DNA of 52,291 nucleotides, counting the filler, from Jimgerdemannia flammicorona (taxonomy: Eukaryota), in the NCBI GenBank assembly GCA_003990765.1. It is 2 parts of 2 records of this genome, joined end to end, with 100 filler letters (N's around TTAATTAATTAA, not from the genome) between each part and the next. Parts side by side here need not be neighbours in the genome. Positions count along the whole stretch, not along the records: positions 1 to 26,099 come from RBNJ01000762.1; 1 more part is not named here. The stretch is one strand, 5' to 3'. The position numbers were made by a program, and so were the translations under genes. The notes under the pieces were generated by a model, which saw nothing but the letters and a program-made list of their open reading frames with translations, did not search any database and was not told where the DNA came from. Positions 7,187 through 45,700 of the stretch are shown piece after piece; the stretch's first letter is position 1; the number at the start of each line of letters is the position of its first letter.

Positions 7187-10100
7187 CTCAGAAGATACAG
7201 ATCAACTATAGAGGAAGAAAGATACAAGTTTCTATTAATGTCTACAAAGAAGTACTATCAGACACAGAGGAAGGAGATAAATAGAACACAGAAGTCTTTA
7301 TGTACTTAGTATACAAGAATAAAGCAAGACAACTAAGCTCACAAATGAGCAGTAGTAGAGTAAGATCATCAATGGCTATGCCCCTTAAGGAAGATGCCCC
7401 TATGATTCTAGGATGTACTGCTCTGAATACCTAAATAACTGCTGGTCCTATATCAGTAAAGTTAGAAAAATCTATCAACAAAAGTACAAACAAGAAGCTA
7501 CAGAAGCAAAAAAGAAAGCTGAAGAAGATGACCAGCCCCCAGAGCTTCAAGCTGATAGTGATGATGAGGAGGAATAAGAACCAGACATCACTCTTAAGGT
7601 CAAGAAGTTTTATCTCAAAGCCAAGATCTCAGAATATAAGACTAAAGAAACTATAGAAATGAACCTTATCAGTATTCAAGATACTATCCTTAAACCACAG
7701 ACCACTACTCTACTTGACACTAGAATTGGAGTCAAGCTATCAGAGAACTATATCAGAATTATCAAGACCAGGAGTAGTCTGGCTAAGAGTAAAATCTCAG
7801 TTGAAGGAAGAGTTGTTGACTCTGATTATACTGGTGAGATCTTTCTTATAGTCAGGAATCACAACTCTACCACTCTATTTAAAGTCAAGAAGTATGACAG
7901 AATTGGCCAGATGCTGATCCATGAAGTTAAGAAGTCTAAGATCACTGAAGCCATTGAACTCATCAAGACTAAGAGATAAGAATAAGGCTTGGGATCTACT
8001 GGAAGAGGAGCCTATGCTGTCACTACGATTATCAAACTCTAGCACAAGAAAGAGAAGGACCAGAACAAGCACACATATATCATTGGAGAAAACATTTCTC
8101 TAGAAGAACAACTTCTCAAGATTCTGCACCAGAATGGAGAAGTACTTGCTACAGACTTTAGGGATATCCACAACCAAGAATTCAAGTACTACTATAAAGT
8201 TAACACTAGTGATACTAAGCCTATATACCATATAGTCTGACCTATACCATCTGTCTACAGAGAATGACTGTGAGCAGAACTCAAAGAAATGGAAGAAGCT
8301 AGTATTATTAAGCAAGCTATCAGTTCCTGGACTTTACTTATTGTCCTTGCTTCAAAGAAAAGAAACAAGTCTGGAGAGTTTTCCCCAAGACTCTGTATTA
8401 ATTATAGGAAGCTCAATGCAATTATCAAGAAGGATAGATAGCTCTTGCCAAATATTTAAGAAATCCTTACCACTCTTGGAAGTGAAGCCAAATACTATAC
8501 TACCTTAGATCTGTTCTCAGGCTTCTATCAGATTGGTCTCACTCAAGATACTAGTAATCAATAAGCCTTTATTATACCTGATACCACTTATGTCTATCTA
8601 TAAATACTATTTAGAATGTGTAATTCTCTAGCAAATTTTCAACAAATGATAAATAGAGTCTTTGATAATAAAATTAGAAAATAGCTCTTTGTCTATATTG
8701 ATAATGTGATCATCTTCAGTAATACTGTAAGGGAATATATCAACCATATATAGCTAGCTCTCAAGAAGCTCAAGGAGCATGCCCTCTATATCAAGCCCAA
8801 GAAGTATAAGTTTGAAGCTCAAGAAATCACCTACCTAGAACATATCATCAATCAGACTAGAATTCATATGAACTCCATGAAGATTGAGGCTGTCACAGCC
8901 TACCCAAGACTAAGAAAAACTATAGAAGTCTATGTCTTTCTTGGACTGGCCTCCTACTACAGAAGATTTATCAAAGGATACTCTAACATTGCAATATCTA
9001 TCTATGAGCTATGGAAGAAGGAGATCAAGTTTGAATAGACTAAGAAATATCAAGAAACCTTCAATAAACTCAAGACTAAATTGACCCAAGCACCCATTCT
9101 TAGAAGACCAGATTGGAACCTAGAGTTCATCCTGCAGATAGATATAAGTACTATAGAACTTAGAGCAGTGCTAGCTCAGAAGAAAGATAGACATAAATAT
9201 ATCATCTCTTATATAAGCCAAGATACCCATAAAGCAGAACAGAACTATGAGTTATGTAAGCTTGAATACTTAGCAGTAGTCTAGACAGTAGACAAGTTCC
9301 ACTACTATCTAGCTGAGAAATACTTCTCTATTCAAACAGACCATTCTGCTCTTGCCTGACTATTCCACACTCTAAACTCCAAAGAAGTATATGCTAGATA
9401 GATCTACAGATTGTAAGAGTATAACTATACTATAAAATACTACTTAGGAAGAACCAATGCCAATGCTGATACACTTTTAAGAATACTCTGAAATATCCCT
9501 ATCAAGACTATTCAATATAAATAAGAAGCTATACTATGGATTAATTAGCTATCTTGGGTAGTAGAAGATATTCAATCACCTTGAACCCTGAACTATTACT
9601 ATCAAACCAGACTTGGAAACAATTTGAACTAGATAACACTATACTTAAAAAAGGAGAAAAACTTATCATACCCAAATACAAGAAGTATCAAATAATGAAG
9701 AAAGTACATGAATAAGGATACTTAGGAGGAACCAATATATACAATAAGGCAAGAAGAACTATGTAGTGGTCTAAGATGGAAGAAGACTTGTGCTAATTTG
9801 TCAAAGAGTATAATAAGTACCAAAAACAAAAATAAGATCAGTAAGACCAAGCACTTAGATTATCAAGAATCAAATCTATCCTCTTCTATTATATCACAAT
9901 AGATATCATTGAACCACTATCAGTAACTATACTATATTTTAGTTATTGTAAATCTCTTTATTAAATAGATAGAAGCAAGAGTATTACAAAAAGCCAATAC
10001 TCTCTCTATTGCTGACTTTCTGTACTAAGAAATCATCTGCTACTATAAGATATGTACTAAGACAAATTACTACAGACTGTGATAGAGAATTTTTCAACAG

Positions 10101-12669: not shown

Positions 12670-15600
12670 ACAGTACAACTAGAATATTCTCTTTAAACCT
12701 AAATAGGTTATGGGGGGCAGCTAGGAGAAAGTATATATTTGGATGGCTAAAGAGTCTGGATGCAGATCTATTTTTACTGCAGGATGTCCATTATGAGGTG
12801 GATGTGGACTTACAGGATTGGACTAAGGAATGGGGGGGGACTGCAGTGTGGATGGGGAGAGTAGGTATCCTAGTTCGAAAGGGGATGGGGGACATTGGGG
12901 ACATTGGAAATTGGGGGACTTGGTTGGTGTGGGGAGTGTGGAAGAGGCCTGGATGGAGCCCATTGATGGTGGGGTCATGTTACTGCCTGGTAGAGAGAGG
13001 GGAACAGGTGGATTGGATTCAAGGTTTGAAAGAGATCAGTGTCTTGGGTGAGGTTGAGTTTGACTGCCTGAGGGGTGACTTCAACATGGTGTGGGATAAG
13101 GGGTTGGACAGGACAGACAGTGGGAGAGGAATGAGGAGCAGGAGTGGTAGATTGGATGATTGGTTGGAGATGGAGAGGTTGAGGTCTTTGGTTGATTCAG
13201 AGAGACAGTTTTGAGATAATCATCAAATTTATACTTACTGGGTGATGGGGCTGGGCTCAAGAATCAACTGGATATTGATGGTGAAATGCTGGGGAGTGGA
13301 TGTCTGGACAATGCTAGAGGTGGTTTGGTGTCCATGGTCAGATCACTGGGGTCTGTTAGGAGGGGGGAGGTTTGGGGGTAGTGGAGATGGGCCTGGACAT
13401 TAGCATCTGAATTCTTCTTTATTGGAGGATGGGGTCTTATGGGTGGATTGGGAGAAGGAGGTTGTTGGGAAAATTGGGAGGTGGCAGGAACAGGGCCTGA
13501 TGATTGGGGATTACTGGAGGAGGCTGAAAGTGAGTGCTCAGGGGTATTGGAGGGAAGCAGAGAAAGGGAGGTATACTCAGTGGCAGAGGAGGGTGCTGTG
13601 GGCCTCACAGTGATTGGCAGCAATTATGGAGAGATGGGCAGGGGTGCTAGAAGACTGGGAGGCAGCCAACTGGCATATTGTGAGGATTAAGAAGGAAGTT
13701 GAGGAGCTTCAGGAAGTGTAATGAAGAGAGGAAGAGATTAGGCTGAAGGGAATGATGGCCTGGCTGAGATGGCAGGGGCTTGAGGAGAGAGAGAGACCCA
13801 CTAGGTTTTTATTGTGGATGTTGCAAGTGCAGCAAACTAAGCAGCAGTTGGATAGGCTTCTAGATGAGGATGGAGAGATGGTGGTGGGGACTCCAGTGAT
13901 TCTGGAATTACTGAGAACTCATTAGGAGGATTTGTGAAGTAAGGAGGTATGGGGGGAGGATGCTTTGAACATTGAAAGGCAGTTGGAGGATTGGTATCCA
14001 GACCCTGCAATGGGCCTGGAGACTCTGGGAGATCTAGTAAAGGGTGAGGAAATTTGCAAAGTCTTGGCTATGACAAGTAGGGAGACAGCTCTGGGTGAGG
14101 ATAGACTACTCTGGGATTTTTGGAAGAAGATGGTGGGGGTGACAGAAGTATTGGAGGAAATGATGGCAATGTGTGGTGAGGTTCTTTGGTCTGGAACTTA
14201 GATTGGGGGCCAGTGTCTGAGACTGGTCTCCTTGCTCTACAAAGATAAGGGGTGATAGGAAGATTGGAAGAACTGGCAGCCAATCATGCTACTTAACATG
14301 AACTGCAAACTAGTGATAAAGATATTAGTGACAAGGCTGCAGAGAATCACTCAGCAAGTACTGGGTATGGAGTAATGAGGATTTGTCAGTGGCTGGTTGA
14401 TCCAAGATGAGATGGCTTGGGTACATAGTTTGATTGAAGGGACTCGGGCTGCAGGGGTAGATGACAGATTGGTTTTTTTGGATTAGGAGAAGGCATATGA
14501 TAGAGTGAGGAGGATCTGGCTGAAGGGGGTGTTGAAATGGGTTGGTATTCCCCCAGGGTTCCAAAGGTCACTAATTGGTCTCCTGGAAAATAGTCAGGCT
14601 GCATTGGTTGTCAATGGTCACAGGAGTGTAACATTTTCTCTTAGTCGTGGGATACTGCAAGGAGATCCTTTGTCACCCATCTTATATCTCCCCCTGGAGC
14701 CCCTACTAGACAGGATCCAGCATCAAATTGGGGGTTTGGACATTCTAGGGATTAATTGGAAGGTGGAGGCCTTTGCTGATAACATGGTGATTAGACTGGA
14801 CTCATTAGCAGATGTGGGGGAGTTAAGGAGATCTGTTGAATAGTATGAGAGGGGCTCTGGTGCTAAACTCAATTGACATAAATGTGAGACTCTGGTGCTA
14901 GGTGGCAGAATCATTGGTGGTGACATAATTGGGATGGTGGTGCCAGCAGGAGAGCCAGTTCATTACCTGGAGATCTACTTTTTGGTATTTGGGTCCCTTC
15001 TGCCCTGTGCTTGGTGAGATCAATGACTCCTGGAGTGGGGAAATGTGCTTTTGTGATAGGGTGGTCAGCATATATCTTTGGCAGAAAGGGTGATAGTGCT
15101 GAATATGTATTGGATGCTGAAGCTGTGGTATGTGGGGTATCATCTAGACTTCCCAGTTTGGGTGGTCAAGAGACTGTTGAAAATGGCAAGATCATAGATC
15201 TGGGCAGAGCAGCAGAGTCAGATAGATTGGGAGATTCTGACCCTCCCAGTGGAAAGGGGTGGGCTGGAATTAGTGGACTTTCCCAAATGACTTCATTGCT
15301 TGAGAGTATGGTGGCTGAGGAGAGTGAGCAAGCTGAGGGGTCAGAAGTGGGTACTACTTATACAGAGGGTGTGGAAGGCTCAGTACTCCCCTCATGGAGC
15401 TTCTGGTGATCTTTTTGCATTGGTGGCCATAGATGAGAGCAAGAGAATGTAGTATAAGGGCTTTTGGTATAGGGTAGTAGATAGTGCTAGGTGAATTGGA
15501 CTTTGGTGGCAGAGTGATCAGAGAGAGGAGGATTGGAGACTGCAGATGTGGAGATGGGACAGACTACTGCTGGGCAGTGTTTTGGTGGAGGACTTTCAGC

Positions 15601-16300
15601 TTGGCAATGGAATAGAGTGTTTGTGGGGCTTAGGGGGGGACCTTTGGCCTGAAGTCTGGCAGAGGGTTGGGATTGGCAAGGAGTGGGACTGGAATGGTCT
15701 CTGGCTTTGGAGCAAGCAGGTGATGCAGTGGCTACCCTCTAAGTTCTGAGTGGTTTGGTGGTGAGTCCTATGGTGAAATGTGATGTTGAACTATCAGTCT
15801 GGGCATTTGGTGGCCAGTGGCATATTTGAGTGTGAGGAATGTTTAGATGTTGGACAGAAAGGGGGAGTGATACAAACACCTGAACATTGGCTTGGCGAAT
15901 GTGATGTTTTGGGGGTATTTTGGCATTATATTGCAGACTAGTTAGGGCTGCAAGCCCTGGAAGAAGGGGAAGGGGGGAGATGGGGAGAGCTCTGCCATAG
16001 GCTGGTGGGAGGGGTTGGGAATGAGTAGCTGACCCTCAGTTGGGCTTTGGCCATATGGATCAGACTGGTTGGGCATTAGGTACATGTATTTGAGGAGGGC
16101 CAGTGGGTCAGGGTAGGAGATAGGGTGGTACATTGAGAATGGTTATTACTGGATATTTTGAATGGCTGGGGCGAGGGTAGGGGCTGGGTGGGGGGAGTTG
16201 CAGGGGATTGATACAGTGTATCTCTCAGAAAAGTAGTAGAAGGATTCAGGTGGTGGATGACTGGGTTGTTCTCCAGCAGAAGGGAGAAGAGGGTGGAAGA
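12666..16300 (+). pseudogene. LINE-B ORF2: apurinic-type endonuclease plus reverse transcriptase, degenerate (end approximate)
   Basis: RIFSLNLNRL..ADLFLLQDVH..GDFNMV (APE); GILQGDPLSPILY..AFADNMV (RT). Confidence 0.92.
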
Positions 16301-19680: not shown

Positions 19681-20087
19681 ATGTATATTTGTATTGAAAT
19701 TCTTGCCTATCATATGTTAGTGAACTATATTTAACTTAGGGCAGGGGCAGGTAAACGGGCCTTGTGCAATTTGCGGAGGCTTGTGTTTGGCCTGTGTAAC
19801 TTGATTCCGAATGACGTCCACTTTGACAGCCGAAATCCATCACCACGTGTTTCCACTTAGCACTTTGACAGGACCGCGTGCCTTGCCCAATAAACTCCAG
19901 CAAACCGAAGGTTTTTTTTCCGATGCCAAAGAATTAAACGCCGATGGTTGTAGAGGTGAGATTTTGATGTGTAAATGTAAGAAATATTTTCCCCACGACA
20001 TGCGGAGAGGCCGCAGCTGATGTGACAGCCGGAAATTAAACTGCCGTCTGTATTGATCCTGCTCAAAGAACATATACCGACTCCTCA

Positions 20088-20210
20088 ATGCCTCCGATAA
20101 CAAAAACCCCTAAAAAACCGCGCTGCAATAACTGCAAATTCTGGATTTCTTGCGACAAAAATGATCCCTGTTCAAGATGTCGCCGGCTGCGAAAGGATTG
20201 CTCGTATGCC
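20088..20210 (+). other. Zn(II)2Cys6 (GAL4-type) binuclear cluster-like domain
   Basis: KKPR-CNNC-KFWIS-C-DKNDP-C-SR-C-RRLRKD-C-SY; C2-C3 spacing is 5 rather than the canonical 6. Confidence 0.75.
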
Positions 20211-23200
20211 GGCTACAGCATGCGAAGAACTTTGACAATGGAAGAATTTGTCGCAAATACGGAAAATCCCATCATCTCGCTGCCAACGACCCTCCCCCCA
20301 GTAAGGTCATCACCTACACAAAGTAAGTTTCTACATCGTCTGTGAACACGATCTCAATCGAACCATTAAATGACACGCTACTAATAATATCTCGTAATAC
20401 CTAGACATGTCACAACTAATCACAACGGAAGATGGCGTCGCAAATACGGAAAATCCGATCAACTTGCCACTGACGACCTTCCTCCCAGTAGGGTCATCAC
20501 TAACATCAAGTAAGTCTCTAGGCCTCTGGGAACACGATCTCATTCGAACCATCAAACAACCCCTGCTGACAATGCCTCACAATACCTAGACATGCAACGA
20601 CCAAAGTCAACAGAAAATAGCGTCGCAAAAACTGAAAATCTGATCAACACGCCGCTGAAGACCCTACCCCCAGTAGGATCATCACTAACAACAAGTAAGT
20701 TTCTACAGCCGATGTCATTCGATCCATTAAATGTCCCGCTACTAACAATATCTCTCAATACCTAGGCATGTCACCACCAATTACAACGGAGGATAGCGTC
20801 GCAAATACGGAAAATCCTATCAACTTGCCACTGACAACCCTCCCCCCAGTAAGGTCATCACCAACATCAAGTAGGTTTCCACAGCCTCTGTGAACACGAT
20901 CTCATTCGAACAATTAAATGACACGCTACTAACAATATCTCACAATACCTAGACATGTCTTCTAACTATAATTACGTGACCGTCGACGACAGGGGGACTA
21001 TACCATTCAGTCAACAAATCATGCGTGTATCATTGTTGAAAGGCCCTGACAACTCTACTGAAATCCGAGTCCAAGTATCTGCTGAACACAACGCAGAGCT
21101 CGAATACAGCCATTCCTTCTTCTTTGAAGCTATTGAGGACAGACGCATTGCCATTGAGGTCTTCGACAAAAAACCTAGGTCACACCTACTCGTGAGATAT
21201 GGCATAAAGTAAGTCGAAACATCCAGCCTCATCGAACATTATCGTAAAATCCTACCTTAACTCACATATAATGATAACTCAGATTGTTCAAAGCCCTCTT
21301 CAAGGACGATTCTCCCGCCAAGCGGCTAATTCAGAGAATACCACCGTGCGCAGTCCTGCTCGAGCTCAACGGCGACCAAGCCCTTGATGACATTCCTTGG
21401 GAATATGCATATGTATCGTCCAGCGACATGTACCTAGTTCACGAACGCGCGTTCACCCGCATGTTCATGCCCACGAGAAAGGAGGAAGAGCTTCAGTTGC
21501 AGAAACGTATGCTACGCGTTGTTGTTGTTGCACCGGACCCCGTCAATGCAAACCTTCCAGATTTGCATTTGAGCGAGCAGTTCCAGAGCTTCATTAACGA
21601 ATATTCTAAAAATATTAAAAAAGTATTAATGGAGTACGTGTTTCCGCCCACCGTCCATCGGATGGACGAGTTGCTCATGAAGGAGCCCGACACAGCCACA
21701 GTGCTTCATTTCATGGGACACTGCGAGTTGTTGAAGGGCAATGCGAGGGGCCTCATCTTCGAAACAGAGACGGGGGAATGCGAATATGTTGACAAGCTTC
21801 TCTTCACCGGTGTGCCCAAAAACCTGCGACTCGCATTTTTGTCGGCTTGCAATACCCGCGACGTCGCCCGTGCCCTGCTCCAGTACGGCGTTCCGTACAC
21901 CATTGGTTCATATTGCGCCATACCGGACGACCTTGTCCGCAAGTTCGAATCCACGTTCTACCAATGTCTTACCAGTGGCTACACCGTCGAGAAGGCGATG
22001 TGGAAGGCGCGTCTATTTCTCCAACAAAAAGACCTCCGGGAATGCCACTATTTCCCTGGTGCCATGGTACTCTACTCGTCCGCGCTTCGGGAAGATGACG
22101 GCGCGTTCAAGTGCGAGGAGGGCATACCCGTGATCGATACCCACATGCCTCGCAATAACCTCGAGGTATTCACCGACACACGCAATTTCTGTGGACGCAA
22201 GAAAGATCTGATTAAGATTGCCGGCATTTTACGGCGTATGGTGAAACAAGGGGAAAAAACTTATCCCATATATACCATTGAAGGCATCACTGGTCAGGGC
22301 AAAACTAGGTTGGCCGAGAAGGCGGTCAGGCGGACGGCGCATCTCTTTCCCGGTGGGATATTCGCTTGGCAATTCGATCGCATGGGGGTGTCGGTTGCTA
22401 AATATCTCTCAAATCTGGTTGAGGTCATATTTCCGGATGATGTTCAGTCGCGCTTGAAGATTCGGAGTGCTGGGGGCAACGATGTTGAGCGCTTGGAGAA
22501 AGCCGTCATTAAGGAATTTGTGGATTATCCTACTTGTTTGTTAATCCTCGATCATGCCGAGAACCTGGAACACGCCAAAGCTGGTGATAAGGATGCTGTG
22601 GCGTTGGGAAAATGGCTTCGGAAAATTACATCAACATCGAATGGCGCTGTCAAAATTCTTGCAACGTCGAGTGAGCCTCTGCGGTGGACAGGTGAGGACA
22701 GGATGCATCTCGATGGTTTGGATATTGACAGTGGCGTTGAGTTGTTCATTCGAAATCTCGACGCTGAAGTAAAGCAGACGTTGGAGAATGAGAAAAATAC
22801 TACGCAGTTGCTGCAGGACCTCGTCAGGCTCGTAGACGGACATCCACTGTGCCTGAAATCCCTAGCTCATATAGTCGGCTTACCACAACATCGCAATGTT
22901 TCGCTTGAGCAATTGGTTCAAGAACACTGCAGTATATTGCTGGCGAATGGCTTGCATGAAAGTACAAACCTCGGCACTCTTTTAGGACCATCGATCAACA
23001 TGCTTACACCACTGGAACGCGAGTTACTGTACATTTGTTCTCTCTTCACCGGATCAATCACAGAAGGAGTGCTCGAATTCGTTCGCTATTTTGTTGAGTG
23101 CGTCAATGGGCCCAAAAGTGGGATCAATTCCAGTGAGACAATCGCGACCAATCTTCAACAACTATACCGTCGCGGATTATTGTCTAAACAAGATGAAGAA

Positions 23201-26099
23201 TACAGGATGCAATTCGCACTTAGGGAAGGCACGAGACTGTGTAATTCCATGTTGAAGTTCCGTCTGCGTTTGCCTATCCCTGGCTTGTGCGATGATACAT
23301 TTGTAATCGGCGTGGTCGGACCACACCCACACGGTAAGTGAAATAGTGAAAAGAGATGGTGTTGCTATCTCCTTTTTATTTTCTCTAACTCTATCGATCT
23401 TCATTCAGAGAGATCTATTGTGCTGGAATGGCAACTCCGAAGATTTCAAGCCCACGCCCAAAGGGAGCTGAAAACCGGGGTTTTCGGCATAGACTACTAC
23501 TCCATAGGAAATGCGGGTCTTCGAATCCTAAATATTCCCGGCATAAACGAGAAAGGCGCCAAAGCTGCCCAACAGCCGCATGCATCCTTCCGTGGGTTAG
23601 TTGTATTCGTATACAACATATCCGAAGGCAATCACAACAGCTTCCAACAGGTCTGCACAAAGCAAATTGTACCACTTGCACAAGAAAAACAAATTACCTT
23701 TATTCTTTGCTTAAACCATACCGACGAGACGTTTGAAAGACGGACTGCTTCATTTCTGTCGAAGAAAGCTGCCGAAATTCTTCGAGACAATCTTGAGAAG
23801 TCGCACTGGATCATTAGGACAGAGGCACCACCCAGTAGGTTTAAATTGTATACCCATCCCAATGATCTCTATTGTATACATCAAAATGGTTTTACTTATG
23901 TTATTGTTATATCTATTTAACTTATTATCCAAAATATATTTTCTGGAAGGCATTGTGCAAGCAAGGGGGGAAGAGTATGTGAACTCAGGTGGGAGAACTT
24001 TCTGTATTACAGAGTAAACAGATGCGATTCATTGGAGTTCTGGACTGACCGAGATACTTTCAATCCGCCTACAGTTTCGAATGAAAATCTCAATCTCGAC
24101 AACAAAACCGTAGAGACGATTTACCGTAAACGTAACGACAACGTCCACATGGAAGGACCTTTCATTGGGCGCAAAGGAGATCTCGAAAAATTGGACAAAC
24201 TTCTCCAAGGCTCTGAACGCTACATCACCATCAAAGGATTCGGCGGAGTGGGCAAAACGTCGTTAGCGCTTCAGGCTTTCGGAAACTTCAACTCCGGTAG
24301 CGCTCTTGCGCTTTCTCTTGCTGGAGCTCCAAGGGCAAGCCAAGTGATCCTGAAAATGGCAGAGTTTTTCGCGATTGACACTAAGTGCTTAAACGATCAA
24401 GACCAGCAGAATGAAGTCCTCGGGAAAATGGAAAGTAAAGAGTCAATTTTGCTCTATCTCGACAACATGGAAGACGTCAAAATAGCGATGGAAAGTAGTG
24501 TTCCTGGGACGAAAGAGGAAGCAAGGACATTAATAAATTTTTTCAAGAGGTTACCAGCCAATGTCCAAATTCTCGCAACCTCAAGAATCGCATTAGGTTG
24601 GCCTAAAGAACGTTTGTTCGATCTGGCTGGCTTGGAGCCACGTGAAGGCATGCTTGTTTTTCAACAGTGGACCCCTCAACGCTCGGAAGCGGGCGATACA
24701 GATGACCAAAGCGGAATGGATCTCAGCCGCGTAACCGACGGTCATCCATTGTCGCTGCGCCTTCTTGGAGGCATGTTTGACAATTGTAAGGATCCTATCC
24801 ATCAATTCGTCAAAGAGGTCTGTGATCGGCTAACGGTGGCCGTGAATCCCGAATCCTTTGACAAGCGACACGAATCGATAGACGACTGCATCAAGTACAG
24901 CTTCGAATACCTGAATGATGAGTTGGGGACATTCCTTGGTGGGTTGAGGGCGTGGAGCATTCCATTTACATCAACTCTTGTCATGCGCGCTTTGATGAAT
25001 GAACCTTCAGCTCCATCAGCATCGCTTGTGTCAACCAATTTGCACAAACTTTGGCAAAGAAGCTGGCTAAACCGACGAAAATACGAGGTCGACCCAATGC
25101 TCGGTGACTGGCGCCCCAACATTATCTCGAATGAAACCGAGTTTTATAGCCTGCATCCACGCCTACACGACTTCCTTAACCACCGGTTTGATAACGTCGA
25201 GGCTATTCTTCCCAACGATGCAGAAATTCAATTTTACACTGCACTGTGCTACGGAGTAGGATTTGGTGTTGCAAATGATCTAGCCAAACAAATTGAGTGG
25301 TCCACTAAGGCTGCGAACAACGGTCATTTGGAAGCGCAGTTAACGCTTGCTGCTTGTTATCAGGGAGGGTGCGGTGTTAGCCGAAGTAAGCAGAAGGCAT
25401 TTGATTTGTTCTTGAAGGCTGCCGAGACCGGAAGCAAACAAGCGCAAAGCGAGATCGTGGTGTATTACCGGAAAGGCTATGGTGTTGATAAAAATGAGGA
25501 AAGAGCGACTTTTTGGGAAAAAGTTGTTAAAAGAAACAAGACGGCGCCACTTTTGATTTCATTTGACCTTTCTCTCCCGCTAATGCATCGCTTTGCATTC
25601 GGTGGTGATGTGGTAATGGTCAGATCACTCTGTTCTCGTACCAGTGACGTCAGTGTTCGAGACAGAATCGGGAGAACCTCGCTGCACGTGGCTGCACAAA
25701 TCGGTCACATTGACCTCATCGAGGAACTTTTGTATGAATGCAATGCTGATATTTCCCTCAAGGACATTTATGGTCGAACCCCAATCCACCTGTCTGCACA
25801 AACTGGTCACCACGAGGCTGTATGGTTCTTTGTGACTGCCTGTGGCGTTGACCCTAACTCGAAAATTAATTCTGGTTGCACACCCCTCCACCTCGCTGCG
25901 AATAAGGGGTCTCTCGAAGTCGTAAAAGTGCTCTTGGCCGACTCCAAGGCGGACCTCAACGCCAAGAACAACGACGGGTGGACGCCCCTTCACTTCGCTG
26001 CGCAGAACGGGCACGTCGAGGTCGTAAAGGTGCTCGTAACCGACTCCAAGGCGGACGCCAACGCCAAGTCAATCCAAGAAGCTACACCTCTACATTATG
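20088..26099 (+). CDS. Multi-exon NLR-like protein: Zn2Cys6 - 35-aa repeats - CHAT protease - STAND1 - degenerate G-domain - STAND2 - SEL1 - ankyrin; 3' end lost in gap. Exons 20088-20322, 20405-20509, 20590-20694, 20766-20870, 20953-21208, 21283-23333, 23409-~23838, ~23950/24013-26099
   Basis: Six GTA(A/G)GT...YAG introns (71-82 bp), most with CTAAY/CTGAC branch sites, join the ORFs with matching phases; the last intron (somewhere in 23835-24021, removing TAA 23918-23920) has uncertain boundaries; CpG content is normal and long frames are intact. Confidence 0.75.
20235..20957 (+). repeat. Four tandem ~176-187-bp units, each an exon segment plus intron
   Basis: Repeated gtcgcaaatacggaaaatcc..ccagtaaggtcatcac..aa|gtaagt..ctaa..aatacctag|acatg; introns 20323-20404, 20510-20589, 20695-20765, 20871-20952; internal exons are exactly 105 nt. 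Confidence 0.92.
21283..22078 (+). other. CHAT (caspase HetF-associated with TPRs) cysteine protease domain
   Basis: LDDIPWE, LRVVVVAPDP, VLHFMGHC (His 21719-21721), LAFLSACNT (Cys 21848-21850), LLQYGVP, FESTFYQCL..G.TVEKAMWKAR, GAMVLY. Confidence 0.9.
22184..23220 (+). other. STAND (NB-ARC-like) NTPase 1 with helical/winged-helix region
   Basis: FCGRKKDL, Walker A GITGQGKT (22283-22306), Walker B LLILDHAE, ILATSS, DGHPLCL, LQQLYRRGLL. Confidence 0.9.
23300..23810 (+). other. Degenerate Ras/Roc-like small GTPase domain (spans intron 23334-23408)
   Basis: After splicing: IGVVGPHPHERS (G1 position), LRILNIPG (DxxG position), VVFVYNIS..NSFQQV, FILCLNHTD (NKxD position). Confidence 0.6.
24161..25180 (+). 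other. STAND (NB-ARC-like) NTPase 2
   Basis: FIGRKGDL, Walker A GFGGVGKT (24236-24259), Walker B LLYLDNME, ILATSR, DGHPLSLRL, SFEYL, YSLHPRLHDF. Confidence 0.92.
25210..25530 (+). other. About three SEL1-like repeats
   Basis: GVGFGVANDL..WSTKAANNGH; AQLTLAACYQGGCGVSRSKQKAFDLFLKAAETG; AQSEIVVYYRKGYGVDKNEERA. Confidence 0.88.
25580..26099 (+). other. Ankyrin repeats (5 complete plus start of a 6th), truncated by gap
   Basis: GRTSLHVAAQIGH, GRTPIHLSAQTGH, GCTPLHLAANKGSLEVVKVLL, GWTPLHFAAQNGHVEVVKVL, ATPLHY. Confidence 0.95.
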
Positions 26100-26199
26100 N
26101 NNNNNNNNNNNNNNNNNNNNNNNNNNNNNNNNNNNNNNNNNNNTTAATTAATTAANNNNNNNNNNNNNNNNNNNNNNNNNNNNNNNNNNNNNNNNNNNN
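26100..26199. other. Artificial scaffold/concatenation gap with all-frame-stop linker TTAATTAATTAA (26144-26155)
   Basis: 100-nt block of N containing a palindromic six-frame stop linker; contiguity across it is unproven. Confidence 0.95.
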
Positions 26200-28294
26200 C
26201 CCCCCCTACTCCTTCCCTATGAAAGACCATCTTATCTAATACCATTTCCACCCTTCCTCCACTTTGCTCACAGATCGTCGCCACCAAACTGCACTGGCGT
26301 CCACCCTGAGGACCCCAGCCCACCCACCATCTAGTCAAAAGATCTCCCAACAGCTCCTCCTACCGTAATACCTTCTCCCGGCACCCTGCCTGCTGCCCCT
26401 CCTCAAATACAAAAAGCCAATGGCCCGCTATCCCCACCCACATTGCCAACACCCACCCTACAGTAACCCAACTGTCGCCCACCCCCCTCACCAGCCAAAA
26501 CCTCAAGTCCTCCCAGCGGCCCCCTACACCCGCCGGCCTCCGCTCCACACCCAGTCTGTTGCCTATTTCTACCCAAAAGTCCCCCAATACCTCACACTCC
26601 CCCAGCCAATGTTCCGGCATCTGCACAAATCCCCCATCTTGCCCCACATTGTAACACTCCTCACAATCAAATTGGCCACCATCCACCAGATGCCCAGTGT
26701 GGAAATTCAGCATGACATTCCTCCACAGCATTCGCCACCACACCACCCAGTACTTGGGAGGAAGCCATCTCTGCACCTCAGCACTCCAAGACCAGATACC
26801 CGCCCAGTCCCACTCCTCGCCGATCCCTGCCCCCTGCCAGCCACTTGGCCTAAGATCCTGGCCAAGACCCAGCTGACACTCCACCCCATCTCCAAGATCA
26901 AATGTTTCAATCGGAGCACCCCCCAGCAGCAGTCCATCCCATCTCCACATATCAGATCCCCACACCCCCTCCCCCTCATTGTCTTGCCAGCGCAGGCCAA
27001 TCTGGTGGGCGCCGTCCACCACACCCCACCAAAAGCCTTTAAACCGCAGCCTCCTACTTCCATTCAGCCCTACCAGAGCGAGCAGATCCCCGGAGGACTC
27101 TTGAGGGGAGGTCCTCATCTCCCACACCTTCTGCAGCAGTGGCACCCAACTCCCACCCCATAGTTCAGCAGCTCTTTTCAACCACTAGGCACGCAAGCAG
27201 TGCAACCTCTTAGGGAAATCCATGAGGCCAAGACCCCCCCTGACCACCGGTGTTGCAAGAGTATCCCAACCAATCTGGGACCTCCTCCCTGCCCAAATCC
27301 AATCTCTCACCATCTTCGTCAGCCTCTTCACCACCCAAGCTGGGAAGTCCAGGTGATAGGCCATGTACCACAGCTTGGGGAACCAGTACATATTCAAAAT
27401 CGACACCCTCCCCGCCAGAGAGATACGGTGGCCTCCCTAGCCGCGAAGGGCCTCCCCCCAAATGGTCACCCTGCTCTCCCACCACCCTCGCGGCAAGACA
27501 GAACCATAGACAGAGAGGAAGATGCCCAGGTATCTCACCACCTCACCTGTGGGGACAATTGTTCCAATGACATCTCCACCCACTAGCCCATTTCCAAGCA
27601 CCATTGTCTCACACTTATGCCAGTTGAGCTTCGCCCCTGAGTGCACCTCATACCATTCCACTGTCTCCTTGAGAGCCTCAACATCCGCCACAGACCCAAG
27701 TCCGACCACCATATCATCAGCAAAGGCCCCCACCTTCCACTCTATACCATATATAGAGAGCCCTGCCACCTTCCGGCGAATCCTATCCATCAGTGGCTCT
27801 AACGAAAGGGCATAGAGAATAGGGGACAGAGGGTCCCCCTGAGGAACTCCTCTATCCAAGGAGAACACCAGACCACGATGACCATTATACATCAGTGCCG
27901 CTCGACTACTCTCCAGCAGACTCAATATAGAAGTCCGAAATCCTGGTGGAACACCAATCCGGTCCAATACCTTACCCAGCCAAACCTGTCATACTCAGTC
28001 ATAGGCCTTCTCCTGGTCCAAAAAGACCAACCTTCCATCCAGACCACAAGCCCGGGCCCCTTCAATGACACCATGCACCCACGCAGTCTCATCTCTTATA
28101 AGTCTGTCTCCAACAAAGCCCCTCTGCTCCTCCCCCAGTACCTGTTGGGCAACTTTCTGCAGTCTTGCGACAATCACCTTAGTCACCATCTTCCTGTCCA
28201 TATCCAGCAGCATGATTGGCCTCCAATTCTTCCAATCTTCCCTCCTCCCCTTGTCTTTATACAATAAGGCCACCAGTCCGAGGTCCTGCTCTCC
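26200..28294 (-). mobile_element. L1/Tx1-type LINE (LINE-C), 5'-truncated ORF2, closely related to LINE-A but much less decayed
   Basis: GEQDLGLVALLYKDKGRREDWKNWRPIMLLDMDRK, GVPQGDPLSPILY, GAFADDMVV, GGLGLMDFPKRL, CEEC..MPEHWLGEC; retains many CpG. Confidence 0.93.
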
Positions 28295-31980: not shown

Positions 31981-34900
31981 ATGGAAATACATCCCCCCAT
32001 ATTCTATAAATATACTACTAAAGAGTCAATCCTGACCTTCATTGAAGACTTTGAACAATTTGCCACTATATGAACCCTTGGTGTGGATGCTCAATTGGCC
32101 CTTCTACCAGTCAGCCTTGGAGGATCTGTCAGAGACAAGTTCAATGTAGCCACTATTGCTGATACTGGTGCAGCCAAACTTGCCAACATGAAGGCCTTCC
32201 TCAGAATAACATACTATACTGAAGAGATCAAGCAAGCTCTCAAGGATCAACTCAATACTATCTGCCAGAGACTTAGTGAAGATCCCAACTCATTCTATAT
32301 CCAAATCTGCCACCAGATTGTTCTGGCTAGCTATGATGATGCCCTCAAGGAACAAATAGCAGATTCAACCTTCCTCAAAGGTGTTCACCCTGAAATTGCC
32401 CTAGCAATCTGGTCTACCCCAGTTGCACTGACCCTTGATCAGAAAGTGGTCTTTGCACAGAGATATTGGACTGCCAGACACTCTGCTGAACACTCAATGG
32501 AGAAAATAACTGGCATCAAGATAGAGTCATCAAAGCCAACCAGCATTATACCTACCACAGTTGTAAACAGACAAACATCCCCACCTATCCCCAAGGTACC
32601 CAAAGCTGACCCAGTGGAAGAACTTGCCAAGCAGTTCACTGAGATAACTACACACCTTGGTGATGTTGTTAGAGAAGTCTGAAGTGCCAACAGGAGACCA
32701 GTGTAGAGATTTACAGCTGCTATAGAAGAATGCAATATTATATACTTCAGATGTAGAGAAGAAGACCACTATGCAAAGAATTGCATGACCAAAACAAGAT
32801 ACAAAGCTCAACCAAGCAAAGCTAGCAGAACCAGAGAACAAATCAATACAGTAGTCATCAAAGAGATTGGTGATACTGATGATGAAGAATACTACAAAGA
32901 GCTTGAATACTACTCTGCTACTGAAGGTACCAGAACCTGGTCCAAGCCCTATGACAAGAAGAGCAACAGTAAGCCAGTTGGAAGACCAAAGAAGACCCCA
33001 GCTATCACTATTCAAAGCAAGACCCAACCTGAGGAGATTGATCAAGACATGGAGCTAGATGAAGCCACCCACCAAATTATTGAAGGTACTACTCCAGTCT
33101 TAAGAAAAAGTGAAAGTAAGAAGGAACAGAAGCTGTACAAGACCAAGATCCACTAGTATGATATCTACAAGGACCTCAAGAAACAGAAGGTCAATACTAT
33201 CTTTGGACAGCTAGCTGAAGTCTCTGCCTTCAGACAGCAGTTGAGAGTAGGACTTATAACTACTATCAAGAATCAAGAGTACAAGATTGTAGAAGCTCAC
33301 AATGCATAGAAAGAATCCAAAAACTCAGGTGAAGAATCTGAAGACCAGCCCAAGACATCAGCCTATATCCTTTGTCAGATTGAAGACTGTATTTTTGATG
33401 CCATCATTGATACTGGTGCTGGAGGATGTCTCATAAGCAAGAAGACAATTGACTGCCTAGGTTGAGACATTGAAGAGTTCACCAAGATGGTCTATATTAT
33501 AGCAGATGGTATATGAGCTACCCTCTTTGGCAAAATCTGAGAAGTCCCCATTAAGATAGAAGGAGCTACCATCCCAGTAGATGTGATTGTTATAAGCACC
33601 ATGAACAATGATATCCTCATTGGCAACCAATGGCTTCACAAGGCCAAGGCCATCATTGACCTCAATGTCCAGAAGATGCAAATCAACTATAGAGAAAGAA
33701 AGGTACAAGTCTCTATCAATATCCATAAAGGAGTTCTACCAGACATGGAGGAAGGAGATGAAGAGGACACAGAGGTCTTCATGCACTCAGTAAACAAGAA
33801 CAAGAACAAGAACAAGACACTCAAGCTCACAGATGAGCAGTGGTACAATAAGATTATCGATGGGTATGCCCCTCAAGGAAGATGCCCCCATAGTACTAGG
33901 ATGTACTGCTCTGAACACCTGAATGACTGCTGGTCTTATTCAGTGAAGTTAGGAAAATCTGCCAACAGAAACATAAGCAAGAAGCTGCCAAAGCAAAAAG
34001 AAAAGTCAAAGAAGATGACTAGCCCCCCGAGCTTCAGGCTGATAGTGACAATGAGGAGGAACAAGAAATAGACATCACCCTCAAGGTTAAGAAGTTTCAC
34101 CCCAAAGCTAAGATCCCAGAATATAAGACTGAAGGAGCCATAGGAATGGACCTTACCAGTATTCAAGATGCTACCCTTGAACCATAGACCACCACCCTAC
34201 TTGGTATTAGAATTGGAGTCAAGCTGCCAGAGAACCATGCTGGAATTATCAAGACTAGGAGCAGTCTGGTCAAAAGCAAAATCTCAGTTGAAGGAGGAGT
34301 AATTGACTCTGATTACACTGGTGAGATCTTCCTTATAGTCAGGAATTACAACCCCACCACTCCATTTGAAGTCAAGAAGTATGACAGGATTGGCCAGATG
34401 CTGATCCATAAAATCAAGAAGCCCAAGATCATAGAAGCCATCAAACTCATCAAGACCAAGAGAGAAGAACAAGACTTTGGATCTACTGGAAGAGGAGCCT
34501 ATACCACCACCAAGATTACTGAACTTGAGCACAAGAAAGATCAGGACCAGAACAAGCACACATATACCATTGGAGAAAACTTTTCCCTGGAGGAACAACT
34601 TCTCAAGATCCTGCATCAGAATGAAGAGATACTTGCTACAGACTTCAGGAATATCTACAATCAAGAACCCAAGTATTACCATGAAGTTGACACTAGTGAT
34701 ATCAAGTCCATCTATCAGAAAGCCAGACCCATACCACCTGCCTACAGAGAATGGCTGTAAGCAGAACTCAAGGAAATGGAAGAAGCCAGAATCATTAAGC
34801 AAACTATCAGTCCCTGGACCTCACCCATTGTCCTTGCCCTGAAGAAAGGAAGTAAGTCTGGAGAGTTTGCACCAAGACTCTGCATTGACTACAGGAAGCT

Positions 34901-40010: not shown

Positions 40011-41229
40011 CATATCCTCATACAACATCAGTAGTCCCATTCTACCCCAATCTCAACCCACTCCCAGCCTTGCACCTTTAGGGTGTGAGTTGCGACCTCA
40101 CTGTCCGAGTAACTAGATCTTCCTACCCGGCCTGCCCCACCTAGTAGGTATGGGTTGTGAGCCCCAACCACCTCAAGTACTTGGCATCTAGTGCACCTGA
40201 CCTACCCCTATTAGTGCCTCCTGTCTTTCCCATCTAGTCTGTCTTGCCCGCCCATGTTGCCTGTGTTGCTATCTTACCGTCTTGCCCATCTTGCCTGTCT
40301 TGCCCACTCATGTTGCCCATGTTGCCCATGTTGCCCGTATTGCCTGTGTTGCCCATGTTGCCCGTGTTGCCCACCCATGTTGCCTGTATTGCCCATCTTG
40401 CCCATATTGCCTGTGTTACCCATCTTGTCTGTCTTGCCTGTCTTGCCCATCTTGCCCGCCCATGTTGCCCATGTTGCCCATTTTGCCTGTTTTGCCTGTT
40501 TTGCCTGTCTTGCCCATATCGCCTGTCTTGCCATCTGCCTGTCTTGCCCATGTCGCCCATCTTGCCATCTTGTCCTTCTTGCCTGTCTTACCCGCCTGTG
40601 TTGCCTGTATTGCCTGTGTTGCCCATGTTGCTCATGTTGCCCATGTTGCCTGTGTTACCCACCCGTGTTGCCTGTGTTGCCTGTGTTGCCCGTATTGCCC
40701 GCCCATGTTGCCCATGTTGCCCGTGTTGCCTGCCCATGTTGCCAGTGTTGCCTGTGTTGCCTGTTTTGCCTGTTTTGCCTGTTTTGCCCATTTTGCCCGT
40801 TTTGCCCATTTTGCCCATCTTGCCATCTGCCTATCTTGCCCATGTCGCCATCTTGCCATCTTGCCCGTCTTGCCCGTCTTGCCCGTCTTGCCCATCTTGC
40901 CCATCTTGCCCATGTTGCCCATCTTGTCATCTTGCCATCTTGCCCATCTTGCCTGTCTTGCCCATCTTGCCCACCCGTGTTGCCCATGTTGCCCGTGTTG
41001 CCCGTGTTGCCCATATTACCCGTTTTGCCCATGTCGCCTGTCTTGCCATCTGCCCATCTTGCCCATGTCACCTGTCTTGCCATCTTGCCATCTTATCTGT
41101 CTTGCCCATCTTGCCCGTCTTGCCCGTGTTGCCCATGTTGCCTATGTTTGTTTCTCCAAGTTGTATGTAAAACCATTGCTTGAAGTTTGTGTAACGTAAA
41201 TTGTACCAGAGAGAGATGTGTCGACCATG
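40011..41229. mobile_element. 1219-bp non-autonomous insertion carrying a ~920-bp 9-mer minisatellite, flanked by a 17-bp direct repeat
   Basis: ataatttaactattgta at 39994-40010 and 41230-41246; no TIR, poly(A) or recognisable coding domain; retains CpG. Confidence 0.7.
40225..41145. repeat. Degenerate minisatellite, unit ~TTGCCCRT(G/C/T)
   Basis: Roughly 100 units such as ttgcccatg, ttgcctgtg, ttgcccgtc, ttgcccatc. Confidence 0.95.
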
Positions 41230-42787: not shown

Positions 42788-45700
42788 ACTTAGTGCCCAT
42801 TGGCTAGAGATTCAAGATAAATCCCTCACTTTCAAGCTAAAAAATGAACAATCACCACAATAACTACTCTGACTACAAGAGTCACCCCTGCAAGAATTTA
42901 AGATAAAATAGAAATATATTCTCCTATATTCTATAGATATACTACTGAAGAGTCAATCCTGACCTTCATAGAAGACTTTGAATAATTTGCCACTGTATGA
43001 GTCCTCAATGTGAATGCACAATTGACCCTTCTACTAGTCAGCCTCAGAGGACTTGCCAGAGATAAGTTCAATACAACTACTATTGCTGATACTGGTGCAG
43101 CCAGACTTGCTAATATGAAGACCTTCTTTAGAACTATATACTATACCAAAGAGATCAAGCAAGCTCTCAAGGATCAACTCAACACTATCTACCAGAGACT
43201 TAGTGAAGATTCCAACTCATTTTATATCCAAATCTATCACCAGATTATCTTGGCTAACTATGATGACTGTCTTAAGGAACAAATAGCAGATTCAACCTTC
43301 CTCAAAAGAGTTTACCCTGAAATTGTCCTAGCAATCTGGTCTACTCCAGCTATACTGACCCTTGATCAGAAAGTGGTCTTTGCACAGAGATATTGAACCA
43401 CCAGACACTATACTGAATACTCAATAGAGAAAATAACTAGCATCAAGATAGAGCCATCAAAGCCAACTAGTATCATACCCACTATAGTTGTAAACAGACA
43501 ACCATCCCCATCTATCCCTAAGACAGCCAAAGCTGACCCAGTGGAGGAACTTGCCAAGCAGTTTGCTGAGATGACTACACACTTTGATGATGTTGTTAAA
43601 GAAGTCTAAAGTACCAACAGGAGACCAGTACAGAGATTTGCAGCTGCTACAGAAGAATACAATATTATATGCTTCGGATGTGGAGAAGAAGGCCACTATA
43701 CAAAGAGTTGCATAACTGAAACAAGATACAAAGCTCAACTAAGTAATACAATCAGAACTAGAGAATAAATCAATACAGTAGTCATCAAGGAGATCAGTGA
43801 TACTGATGATGAAAAATACTATAAAGAGCTCGAATTTTACCCTGCTACTGAAGGTACCAGAACCTGGTTCAAGCCCTATGACAAGAAGAGCAACAGCAAG
43901 CCAGTTAGAAGACTAAAGAAGACCCCAGCTGTCACTATCTAAAGTAAGACCCAACCTGAGAAGATTGATCAAGATATGGAGTTAGATAAAGCTGCTCACC
44001 AAATCATTGAAGACACTACTCTAGTCTCAGAAGAAAGTAAAAGCAAGAAGGAACAGAAGCTATGTAAGACCAAGATCTACCAGTATGATATTTACAAGGA
44101 TCTCAAGGAACAGAAGGTCAATACTACTTTTGGACAGCTAGCCAAAGTTCTTGCCTTTAGACAGCAGTCAAGAGTAGGACTTGCAACTATTGCTAAGAAT
44201 CAAGAGTACAAGATTGTAGAAGCTTACAATATATAGGAAGAATTCAAAGACTCAGACAAAGAATCCAAAGACCAGCACAAGACATCAGCCTATACTCTAT
44301 ATCAGATTGAAGATTGTATCTTTGATGCCATCATTAATACTGGTGCTGGAGAATGTCTTATAAGCAAGAAGACAATTGACTGTCTAGGATGGAATATTGA
44401 AGAGTCTACCAAGATAGTCTATGTTACAGCAGATGATACATGAGCTACCCCCTTTTGAAAAATCTGAGAAGTCCCTATCAAGATAGGAGGAGCTACCATT
44501 CCAGTAGATGTGATTGTTACAAGTGCTACCAACTATGACATTCTCATTGACAACCAATGGCTTCACAAGGCCAAGGCCATCATTGACCTCAGTGTCCAGA
44601 AGATGGAGATTAACTATAGAGAAAGAAAGGTATGAGTCTCTATCAATGTCTACAAAGGAGTTCTACCAGACATGGAGGAAGTAGATAAAGAGGACACAGA
44701 AGTCTTTATGCACTTGGTGAACAAGAACAAGAACAAGACACCCAAGCTTACAGATGAGCAATAGTACAATAAGATCATTGATGACTATACCCCTTAAGAA
44801 AGATGCCTCTATGATACTAGCATGTACTGCTCTGAACACCTAAATAACTGCTAGTTCTGTATTAGTGAAGTCAGGAAAATCTGCCAACAGAAGTATGAGC
44901 AAGAAGCTACTGAAGCAAAAAAGAAAGTCAAAGAAGATGACCAGTCTCCAGAGCTTCAATCTAATAGTAATGATGAGGAGGAACAAGAACCAGACATCAC
45001 CCTCAAGATTAAGAAGTTTTACCCTAAAGCCAAGATCCTAGAATATAATACTAAAGGAGCCATAGGAATGGACCTTGCTAGTATTCAAGATGCTATCCTC
45101 AAACTACAGACCACTACTCTACTTGGCATCAGAATTAGAGTCAAGTTGCCAGAGAACTGTACCAGAATTATCAAGACCAGGAGCAGTCTGGCCAAAAGTA
45201 AAATCTCAGTTGAAGGAGGAGTAATTGACTCTGATTATACTAGCAAGATCTTTATCATAGTCAGGAATCACAATCCCATTACCTCATTCAAAGTCATGAA
45301 GTATGACAGAATTAGCCAGATGCTGATCTATGAAATCAAGAAGCCTAAGATCACTAAAGCCATTGAACTCATCAAGACCAAGAGAGGAGAACAAGACTTT
45401 AGATATACTGAAAGAGGAGCCTATACTGCTACTAAGATTACTGAACTTGAGCATAAGAAAGATAAGGATCAGAACAAGCACACATATATCATTGGAGAAA
45501 ACTTTCCTATAGAAGAACAATTTCTCAAGATCCTGCATCAGAATGAAGAAGCACTTGCTACAGACTTCAGGGATATCTACAATCAAGAACCCAAGTACTA
45601 TCATGAAGTTGACACTAGCAATACCAAGCCCATCTACCAGAAAGCCAGACCTATACCATCTGCCTACAGAGAATAGCTACAAGCAGAACTCAAGGAAATG

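Follow-up and report, generated by a model that had tools for sequence, protein, structure and literature searches.

The stretch of Jimgerdemannia flammicorona DNA analyzed here (52,291 nucleotides, filler included, from assembly GCA_003990765.1; hereafter the window) carries on its plus strand, at 20088-26099, what is likely a gene for a fungal-type, NLR-like STAND receptor. The predicted protein consists of an N-terminal region, a CHAT caspase-like protease domain, a first STAND NTPase (NOD1), a degenerate GTPase-like (possibly Ras-like) domain, a second STAND NTPase (NB-ARC2), about three Sel1 repeats and an array of ankyrin (ANK) repeats. We are fairly confident that the part from CHAT to the ankyrin repeats is a single spliced gene. 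CHAT-NOD-ankyrin NLRs have already been described in fungi, and what is new in this gene is that the NOD is doubled, with a GTPase-like linker between the two modules and with Sel1 repeats, a variant conserved in a multi-copy family.

Gene model and outside support for splicing

Open frames run along the plus strand at 20040-26155. The three largest open reading frames (ORFs), 21278-23341, 23342-23920 and 23921-26155, are in frame with one another, with nothing but a TGA at 23339-23341 and a TAA at 23918-23920 between them. A scripted join of nine exons over 20088-26099 on this strand gives 1,782 codons free of stops. All eight introns are of the GT..AG type, measure 71-115 nucleotides (nt) and carry a YTRAY branch-like motif 20-29 nt ahead of the acceptor. 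The predicted protein has 1,782 residues if counted from ATG 20088 and at least 1,598 residues from ATG 20955. The elements of the model needed in what follows are these:

20088-20322, plus strand, exon 1 (putative), starting at ATG 20088
20405-20509, plus strand, exon 2 (105 nt, phase 1)
20590-20694, plus strand, exon 3 (105 nt, phase 1)
20766-20870, plus strand, exon 4 (105 nt, phase 1)
20953-21208, plus strand, exon 5, an N-terminal region conserved with relatives, with in-frame ATGs at 20955 and 21021
21209-21282, plus strand, intron 5 (74 nt, GTAAGT..CAG)
21283-23333, plus strand, exon 6, with CHAT, NOD1 and the start of the GTPase-like domain
23334-23408, plus strand, intron 6 (75 nt, GTAAGT..CTAAC..CAG)
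23409-23834, plus strand, exon 7 (142 codons), with the rest of the GTPase-like domain
23835-23949, plus strand, intron 7 (GTAGGT..AAG)
23950-23988, plus strand, exon 8, a micro-exon (39 nt, phase 1-1)
23989-24074, plus strand, intron 8 (GTGGGA..CAG)
24075-26099, plus strand, exon 9, with NB-ARC2, Sel1 and ankyrin repeats, its 3' end lost
26100-26199, no strand, assembly linker (N44, TTAATTAATTAA, N44)

At 26100 the sequence becomes linker, and the gene is therefore truncated at the 3' side, with the rest of the ankyrin array and the true 3' end missing. The linker, in which TTAATTAATTAA has stops in all six frames, also means that the window joins at least two contigs and that the sequence past 26199 need not adjoin the gene. 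Intron 6, whose length is a multiple of three, contains the TGA at 23339-23341; the frame is kept after its removal, and if it were retained the predicted protein would stop after NOD1. After exon 7 the frame can be kept in two ways, by two introns around the 39-nt micro-exon or by a single 240-nt intron at 23835-24074. Acceptors at 24012 and 24021 were rejected by hand check since both break the frame with donor 23835. The initial annotation had joined separate ORFs through introns of matching phase into a chain of about 1,800 residues, which the nine-exon join bears out; its canonical introns stand, and its seventh intron, left there with uncertain ends, is replaced by either the two introns around the micro-exon or the one of 240 nt.

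The junctions of introns 5, 6, 7 and 8 have outside support, and for introns 1-4 none was found among contigs and database relatives. Contigs from two runs, X1 and X2, were aligned to the locus and accepted at 90% likeness or above. The first X1 record (352 nt, 0 mismatches, depth 2.8) covers 21060-21208 and resumes at 21283-21485, so that intron 5 is removed. This exact spliced contig argues that X1 holds spliced RNA of the very gene in the window. A second X1 contig runs to 23828, with six further letters reaching 23834, passes through 23950-23988 and, after 19 letters resembling 24075-24096, goes on from 24097; because contigs were accepted from 90% likeness it is read as coming from a paralog, and it represents the micro-exon form. 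From X2, two contigs (12-23 mismatches in each aligned piece) link 23829/23831 to 24072/24095 via 29 or 50 letters. The paralog contigs (90-95% likeness) thus join exon 7 to exon 9, one of them through the micro-exon.

The frame of exon 7 is without any Met, so that this exon could not open a gene of its own. A full HMMER scan of the databases with exon 7 (141 residues) gave 149 matches, 36 of which are ORFs of 97-284 residues. Most of the 17 short ORFs that were inspected cover nearly the whole exon at 33-46% identity, and the 36 together fit a conserved internal exon. Many of the short ORFs open only a few residues away from the point where the exon begins, and past the end of the conserved domain 8 of the 17 go on with Gly/Ser-Lys-Leu, as reading through a GTAAG donor gives; both intron positions are therefore probably conserved. 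The remaining 113 matches, long proteins matched many times in one short stretch, were treated as artefacts. All five of the giant matches that were checked are bacterial Ig/cadherin adhesins, and these were rejected as artefacts of composition or repeats.

Three of the 17 short ORFs bridge neighboring parts of the model. P0160 (residues 2-128) aligns to model residues 904-1035 and is gapless at junction 952/953, and P0106 (residues 3-254) aligns to 837-1091, spanning the junction of intron 6; in each of the two a single frame encodes the C-terminal end of NOD1 together with the domain of exon 7. P0094 (residues 14-225) aligns to 978-1205 with a single 13-residue gap, which is the micro-exon; its single frame encodes the exon-7 domain and continues into the first part of NB-ARC2 with the P-loop. 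The linkage of NOD1, GTPase-like domain and NB-ARC2 recurs, as judged from these alignments, in relatives, and the family is seen only as unannotated fragments. Together with the intron 5 contig, P0106, P0160 and P0094 uphold the earlier proposal of one spliced gene from CHAT to ankyrin.

Domains of the predicted protein

The domains recognized between exon 6 and the end of the contig are the following:

21332-22039, plus strand, CHAT caspase-like protease domain (Pfam PF12770)
22175-23260 (outer bounds estimated), plus strand, NOD1, first STAND NTPase, to which the Pfam NB-ARC match maps at 22226-22873
23297-23834, plus strand, GTPase-like domain, degenerate copy, encoded by the last part of exon 6 (strand 1 and P-loop position) and by exon 7 (the rest)
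24185-24907, plus strand, NB-ARC2, second STAND NTPase (Pfam NB-ARC, 28.8 bits against a cut-off of 23.5)
25223-25522, plus strand, about three Sel1 repeats (Pfam Sel1, PF08238, 37.7 bits against a cut-off of 30.7)
25580-26099, plus strand, ankyrin repeats, incomplete because the contig ends here (Ank_2, E 3.5e-58; Ank, E 5e-36)

The CHAT match (58.9 bits, cut-off 24 bits, E 7.3e-16) covers profile positions 22-272 of 289. Its His motif (21707-21724) and Cys motif (21839-21856) both align with the motifs of the solved CHAT chain 8tl0_A, and the aligned His and Cys, which we take to be the catalytic residues, do not vary in any of the 10 rows of alignment A4. Both motifs are intact. Pfam matches in NOD1 are weak (NB-ARC, 16.5 bits with a cut-off of 23.5; AAA_22, 19.2 bits; also ATPase_2 and AAA_16), and its Walker A (22292-22306), Walker B (22538-22555) and GxP (22835-22852) motifs are invariant in A4. 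In NB-ARC2, which is about 27% identical to NOD1, the corresponding motifs at 24242-24259, 24449-24466 and 24737-24754 are intact as well. The intact CHAT motifs and the two STAND NTPases of the initial annotation are in accordance with these results, both modules retaining Walker A, Walker B and GxP-type motifs. The Sel1 region is conserved in four database relatives, P0031-P0034. The ankyrin repeats have a tandem period of 102 bp at 25883-26068, with 82% identity; contigs at these positions have very high depth and many back-joints, which fits a large family of similar ankyrin arrays.

The middle domain is more difficult to assign. An AlphaFold (AF2) model of P0106, made with alignment A2, has predicted local distance difference test (pLDDT) values of 70-94 over residues 145-255 and the element order strand, helix, three strands, helix, strand, helix, strand. 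In the Atlas feature search the nearest named clusters were GTPases (MMR_HSR1, Dynamin_N and GTP_EFTU, 0.86-0.92). The best match in a wide VIA-align search was a Rag-like small GTPase, 9m28_A (Z 6.2, root-mean-square deviation 3.6, 98 residues), followed by LRRK1 Roc, Gtr and a second Rag-like protein (Z 5.0-5.2). Rag and Roc small GTPases (9m28_A, 8yl2_A, 8fw5_E and the LRRK1 Roc domain 8fac_A) have a similar order of strands and helices over 92-102 residues, at Z values of 6.2-5.0 that lie below the safe level for a shared fold. A number of results speak against the GTPase assignment: no Pfam family was found in any of the 37 members of A2 (0/37), Foldseek against the PDB with the middle-domain model gave no match at E<=0.001, even the best VIA-align match is weak, and chitinases and GDSL hydrolases score comparably in that search (Z 5.0-5.5).

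Small GTPases canonically carry GK[ST] at G1, DxxG at G3 and [NT]KxD at G4. At the putative positions of these motifs the window copy has ERS, NIPG and NHTD, none of which agrees with the canonical form, and its relatives P0160 and P0147 have GKS at the P-loop where it has ERS. By this comparison the P-loop Lys and the DxxG Asp are lost in the window copy, and because of the residues standing at G1, G3 and G4 its binding of GTP is unlikely. Going by the model, the label “degenerate GTPase-like domain” is reasonable but unproven, and the domain is probably a structural adaptor rather than an enzyme. The pseudo-GTPase of the initial annotation is kept in this limited sense, for its degenerate motifs and hints of a GTPase-like fold, and not as a firm assignment, given the lack of a Pfam match and the weak Z of 6.2. 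A decayed CHAT copy was also considered for the middle domain and rejected, since a profile-profile comparison of A2 with A4 had its only match in the NB-ARC P-loop that P0094 contains.

Relatives, rival readings and possible function

The two halves of the protein have different close relatives. Two proteins, P0005 (1,270 residues) and P0006 (1,307 residues), are 47-48% identical to the CHAT-NOD1 ORF (P0002) over 96% of the query. They were the only close ones of the 10 proteins scored in the “longer” search with P0002, and both are single-NOD. Their layout of CHAT, one NOD and 13-15 ankyrin repeats, without Sel1 and without a second NB-ARC, is exactly the three-part CHAT/NOD/ankyrin layout of fungal CHAT NLRs. 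The NB-ARC2-Sel1-ANK part has four close relatives, P0031-P0034 (41-58% identity), whose ORFs start at or just past the exon-9 boundary, shortly before NB-ARC2. In the “longer” search with residues 40-560 of P0004, 16 proteins were scored and none was close; the next relatives of NB-ARC2 are bacterial-type CHAT-NB-ARC-TPR proteins, with 33-35% identity over 59-68% of the query. Such bacterial-type STAND proteins (for example P0018, P0019 and P0035-P0038, from metagenomes) align full-length with CHAT-NOD1, and their His, Cys, Walker A and GxP are invariant with those of the window, but they have a single NOD, TPR instead of Sel1/ANK repeats, and no GTPase-like domain.

According to the available parts of the literature, CHAT is among the N-terminal effector domains of fungal NLRs and occurs with ankyrin repeats (PMC9815663, PMC8851545, PMC10197012). 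About 80% of fungal gasdermin genes adjoin genes for CHAT or S8 proteases, some of them NLRs, and a CHAT domain has been shown to process the neighboring gasdermin (PMC8851545, PMC10197012, PMC9815663); CHAT NLRs have been proposed as activators of gasdermin via cleavage (PMC8851545, PMC10197012). HET-Q2-like CHAT NLRs, which are linked to gasdermin het-Q1 homologs, are described in the same papers as having an N-terminal CHAT with His and Cys, a P-loop NOD and ankyrin-type repeats, as here; in comparison with them the gene in the window has three additional parts placed after NOD1 and before the ankyrin array, namely a second NB-ARC, a GTPase-like domain and Sel1 repeats. It thus has the P-loop NOD with Walker A and B and the C-terminal repeats of the fungal NLR class and departs from its single-NOD three-part layout. 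The sections of the fungal NLR literature searched name ANK, TPR and WD40 as repeat classes; neither Sel1 nor a doubled NOD nor a GTPase appears in them, and a literature search combining fungal NLRs and Sel1 found nothing. The plant tandem NB-ARC NLRs, wheat WTN1 and rice Pib, also have two NB-ARC-type modules per polypeptide; as far as the accessible accounts of them go, they differ in kingdom, in effector (coiled coil versus CHAT) and in repeats (leucine-rich versus Sel1/ANK), and no GTPase-like domain is named between their modules. Common descent of the duplication is not implied. The initial annotation regarded the whole architecture as unrecognized. This is still so for the two STAND modules, which were not found for a fungal NLR in the literature portions searched, and no longer so for CHAT-NOD-ankyrin, a described class. 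We infer that the gene goes back to a canonical CHAT-NOD-ANK receptor, which either gained a GTPase-like/NB-ARC/Sel1 block between its NOD and its ankyrin array or was joined to a second NLR; the resulting fusion would later have increased in copy number.

Some observations weigh against a single gene. The bridging ORFs are relatives with 39-43% identity from other loci; X1 and X2 hold 6-7% of the sampled words each, and their RNA nature is guessed, neither being on record as RNA; among the joints listed none of the gene itself crosses 23333|23409 or 23834|24075; and the starts of P0031-P0034 are compatible with a stand-alone NB-ARC2-Sel1-ANK form. No full-length protein with the whole architecture was present among the proteins of 1,204-3,720 residues searched, and the exon-7 search gave no long true relative. 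The searches for longer homologs are word-limited, and such absence is weak evidence. A search for related loci in metagenome contigs with alignment A5 gave 148 pattern matches, 0 of them confirmed. On these grounds the locus could be read as two neighboring genes, CHAT-NOD1 ending at TGA 23341, a stop that retention of intron 6 would place at 23339, and NB-ARC2-Sel1-ANK opening at the first in-frame ATG, around 24149, with exon 7 as a relic or leader. The Met at which P0032 starts is equivalent to 24149, and it and its three companions begin just upstream of NB-ARC2; the single NOD of the close CHAT relatives and the lack of a long fused protein in the databases searched point in the same direction. 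We nevertheless consider two genes improbable. Exon 7 is an open 142-codon frame without Met that is conserved in 36 database ORFs, and the first strand of its domain is already encoded in exon 6, ahead of the intron. P0106 and P0160 link NOD1 to the domain and P0094 links the domain to NB-ARC2, each in one ORF, and the paralog contigs splice exon 7 to exon 9. The starts of P0031-P0034 match the exon-9 boundary, which is also what ORFs called on unspliced DNA would give.

Still less probable, in our opinion very unlikely, is that the locus is a decaying and non-functional paralog stranded among transposons. It is flanked by degenerate fragments of Ty3/gypsy and other retroelements, its GTPase-like P-loop has ERS against GKS in relatives, and the depth of the exact-match contig is low (2.8). 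Against decay stand the 1,782 codons without a stop or frameshift, splice signals that are all intact, the preserved CHAT His and Cys, both sets of Walker A/B and both GxP motifs, and the existence of a spliced contig of the exact sequence.

If the gene works as a single receptor, its mode of action may be pictured by analogy with the described fungal CHAT NLRs. The Sel1/ankyrin end would sense a ligand, and nucleotide exchange in one or both NB-ARC modules would then drive oligomerization, which would bring CHAT domains together. The CHAT domains could in turn cut the product of a gene located elsewhere, possibly a pore former of the gasdermin kind. No Pfam match to the gasdermin family was found in 75 ORFs of at least 90 residues outside 20040-26099 or in 48 ORFs of 40-89 residues at 15.3-20.2 kb, on the upstream side, scans that genes split by introns could escape. 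No substrate gene for CHAT was found in the available flanks, the downstream flank being missing beyond the linker at 26100, and the “self-contained” receptor of the initial annotation is to this extent overstated.

Fungal NLRs are numerous, and very few have a known mechanism. Those bearing CHAT are thought to be “contracted” pyroptosis-like pathways in which a caspase-like protease is built into the receptor. Two switches in series together with a decayed GTPase-type domain raise the question of whether one NOD senses and the other executes, a division of labor that in plants is achieved in trans by paired NLRs. It is conceivable, and we put it forward as a doubtful idea, that these are lineage-specific receptors in which a “helper” (CHAT and NOD1) has been fused to a “sensor” (GTPase-like domain, NB-ARC2 and Sel1/ANK), i.e. 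a cis-linked NLR pair, which the micro-exon, as a cassette, and the stop-bearing intron could tune. In such a pair, retention of the intron with the in-frame stop would release a sensor-less CHAT-NOD1 form. The locus also shows that genes of this kind stay unannotated in transposon-rich, fragmented assemblies.

The 5' end and the flanks

The putative exon 1 contains a Zn2Cys6-like Cys cluster at 20124-20207, which joins the remaining frame only via predicted splices and for which no transcript or homolog support was found. The Pfam family Zn_clus (PF00172), which has a cut-off of 21 bits, reaches 18.9 bits on the ORF at 20040-20345. The cysteines follow the pattern C-x2-C-x5-C-x5-C-x2-C-x6-C; in the canonical Zn2Cys6 cluster the second spacing is 6 residues, where exon 1 has 5, and the loop of this spacing is without basic residues. 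The last 105 nt of exon 1 are copy 0 of a repeat unit, of which exons 2-4, at 20405-20870, are three further copies. The unit consists of a 105-nt exon and a 71-82-nt intron (Tandem Repeats Finder period 176, 3.4 copies, 76% matches). All four exon copies are exactly 105 nt and free of indels in alignment A3, while the introns of the units do carry indels; every unit retains GT, the branch motif and TAG, and the frame is open in all copies. If exons 2-4 are all skipped the frame is still kept. The locus thus illustrates cleanly how new exons arise when an exon is duplicated in tandem together with its intron.

Exon 1 with its Zn cluster and the duplicated exons 2-4 could be either an N-terminal extension of the protein or an untranslated leader. 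Translation from ATG 20088 would place a Zn2Cys6-type cluster and four 35-residue linker repeats before CHAT and might link the receptor to DNA binding or direct it to the nucleus, a possibility we take seriously while leaning slightly away from it. It is in accordance with a frame that is open across four splice junctions (183 codons), with splice signals kept in four units, and with exons free of indels next to introns of 71-82 nt; in addition, a lone 85-residue Zn-cluster product would be atypical for the Zn2Cys6 family. Other observations weigh against it, among them the sub-threshold score and atypical spacing just described. Conservation is not higher in the repeat exons (0.70-0.89) than in the introns (0.77-0.89), and the differences between exon copies are spread over the codon positions as 39/51/50, without position bias. 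For the closest relatives, P0005 and P0006, the alignment starts at model residue 207 (ATG 21021, in exon 5), so that they begin at exon 5 without a Zn domain. Contigs cover just a 32-nt motif of exon 1 and scarcely reach exons 2-4, where their depth of 0-1 was counted neither for nor against expression. The DNA-binding Zn2Cys6 cluster of the initial annotation, which no transcript links to the gene, is therefore not supported, and for this reason the transcriptional output suggested there becomes speculation.

The contigs on exon 1 come from X2 and match only the 32-nt core of the Zn-cluster exon at 20148-20179, diverging on both sides, so that the source of X2 has other Zn-cluster sequences with a near-identical core. 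In one of the diverging flanks the encoded C-x2-C loop is more basic.

The flanks, in which no further cellular gene was recognized, consist of degenerate retroelements, namely Ty3/gypsy pieces (dUTPase, reverse transcriptase (RT), RNase H and integrase) and a second, RT-bearing element. Three copies of the latter with RVT_1 fragments, 67-68% identical, lie at 455-2406 (plus strand), 14221-15923 (plus strand) and 26396-28294 (minus strand). The sense strand of this element is strongly G-rich, with a GC skew of +0.38 to +0.56 at 1-2 kb and 10-16 kb and of -0.40 at 26-28 kb. Three dUTPase ORFs are present on the plus strand at 7578-7976, 34188-34757 and 44855-45673 (E 1e-17 to 1e-22). Those at 33.5-36.8 kb and 44.9-47.5 kb adjoin fragments of protease, RT, RNase H and integrase, which indicates degenerate Ty3/gypsy-type elements carrying a dUTPase. 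A minisatellite at 40220-41143 is made of about 98 copies of a 9-bp unit with the consensus TCTTGCCCA, was also scored as an 18-bp period, and leaves all three plus-strand frames open for approximately 1 kb.

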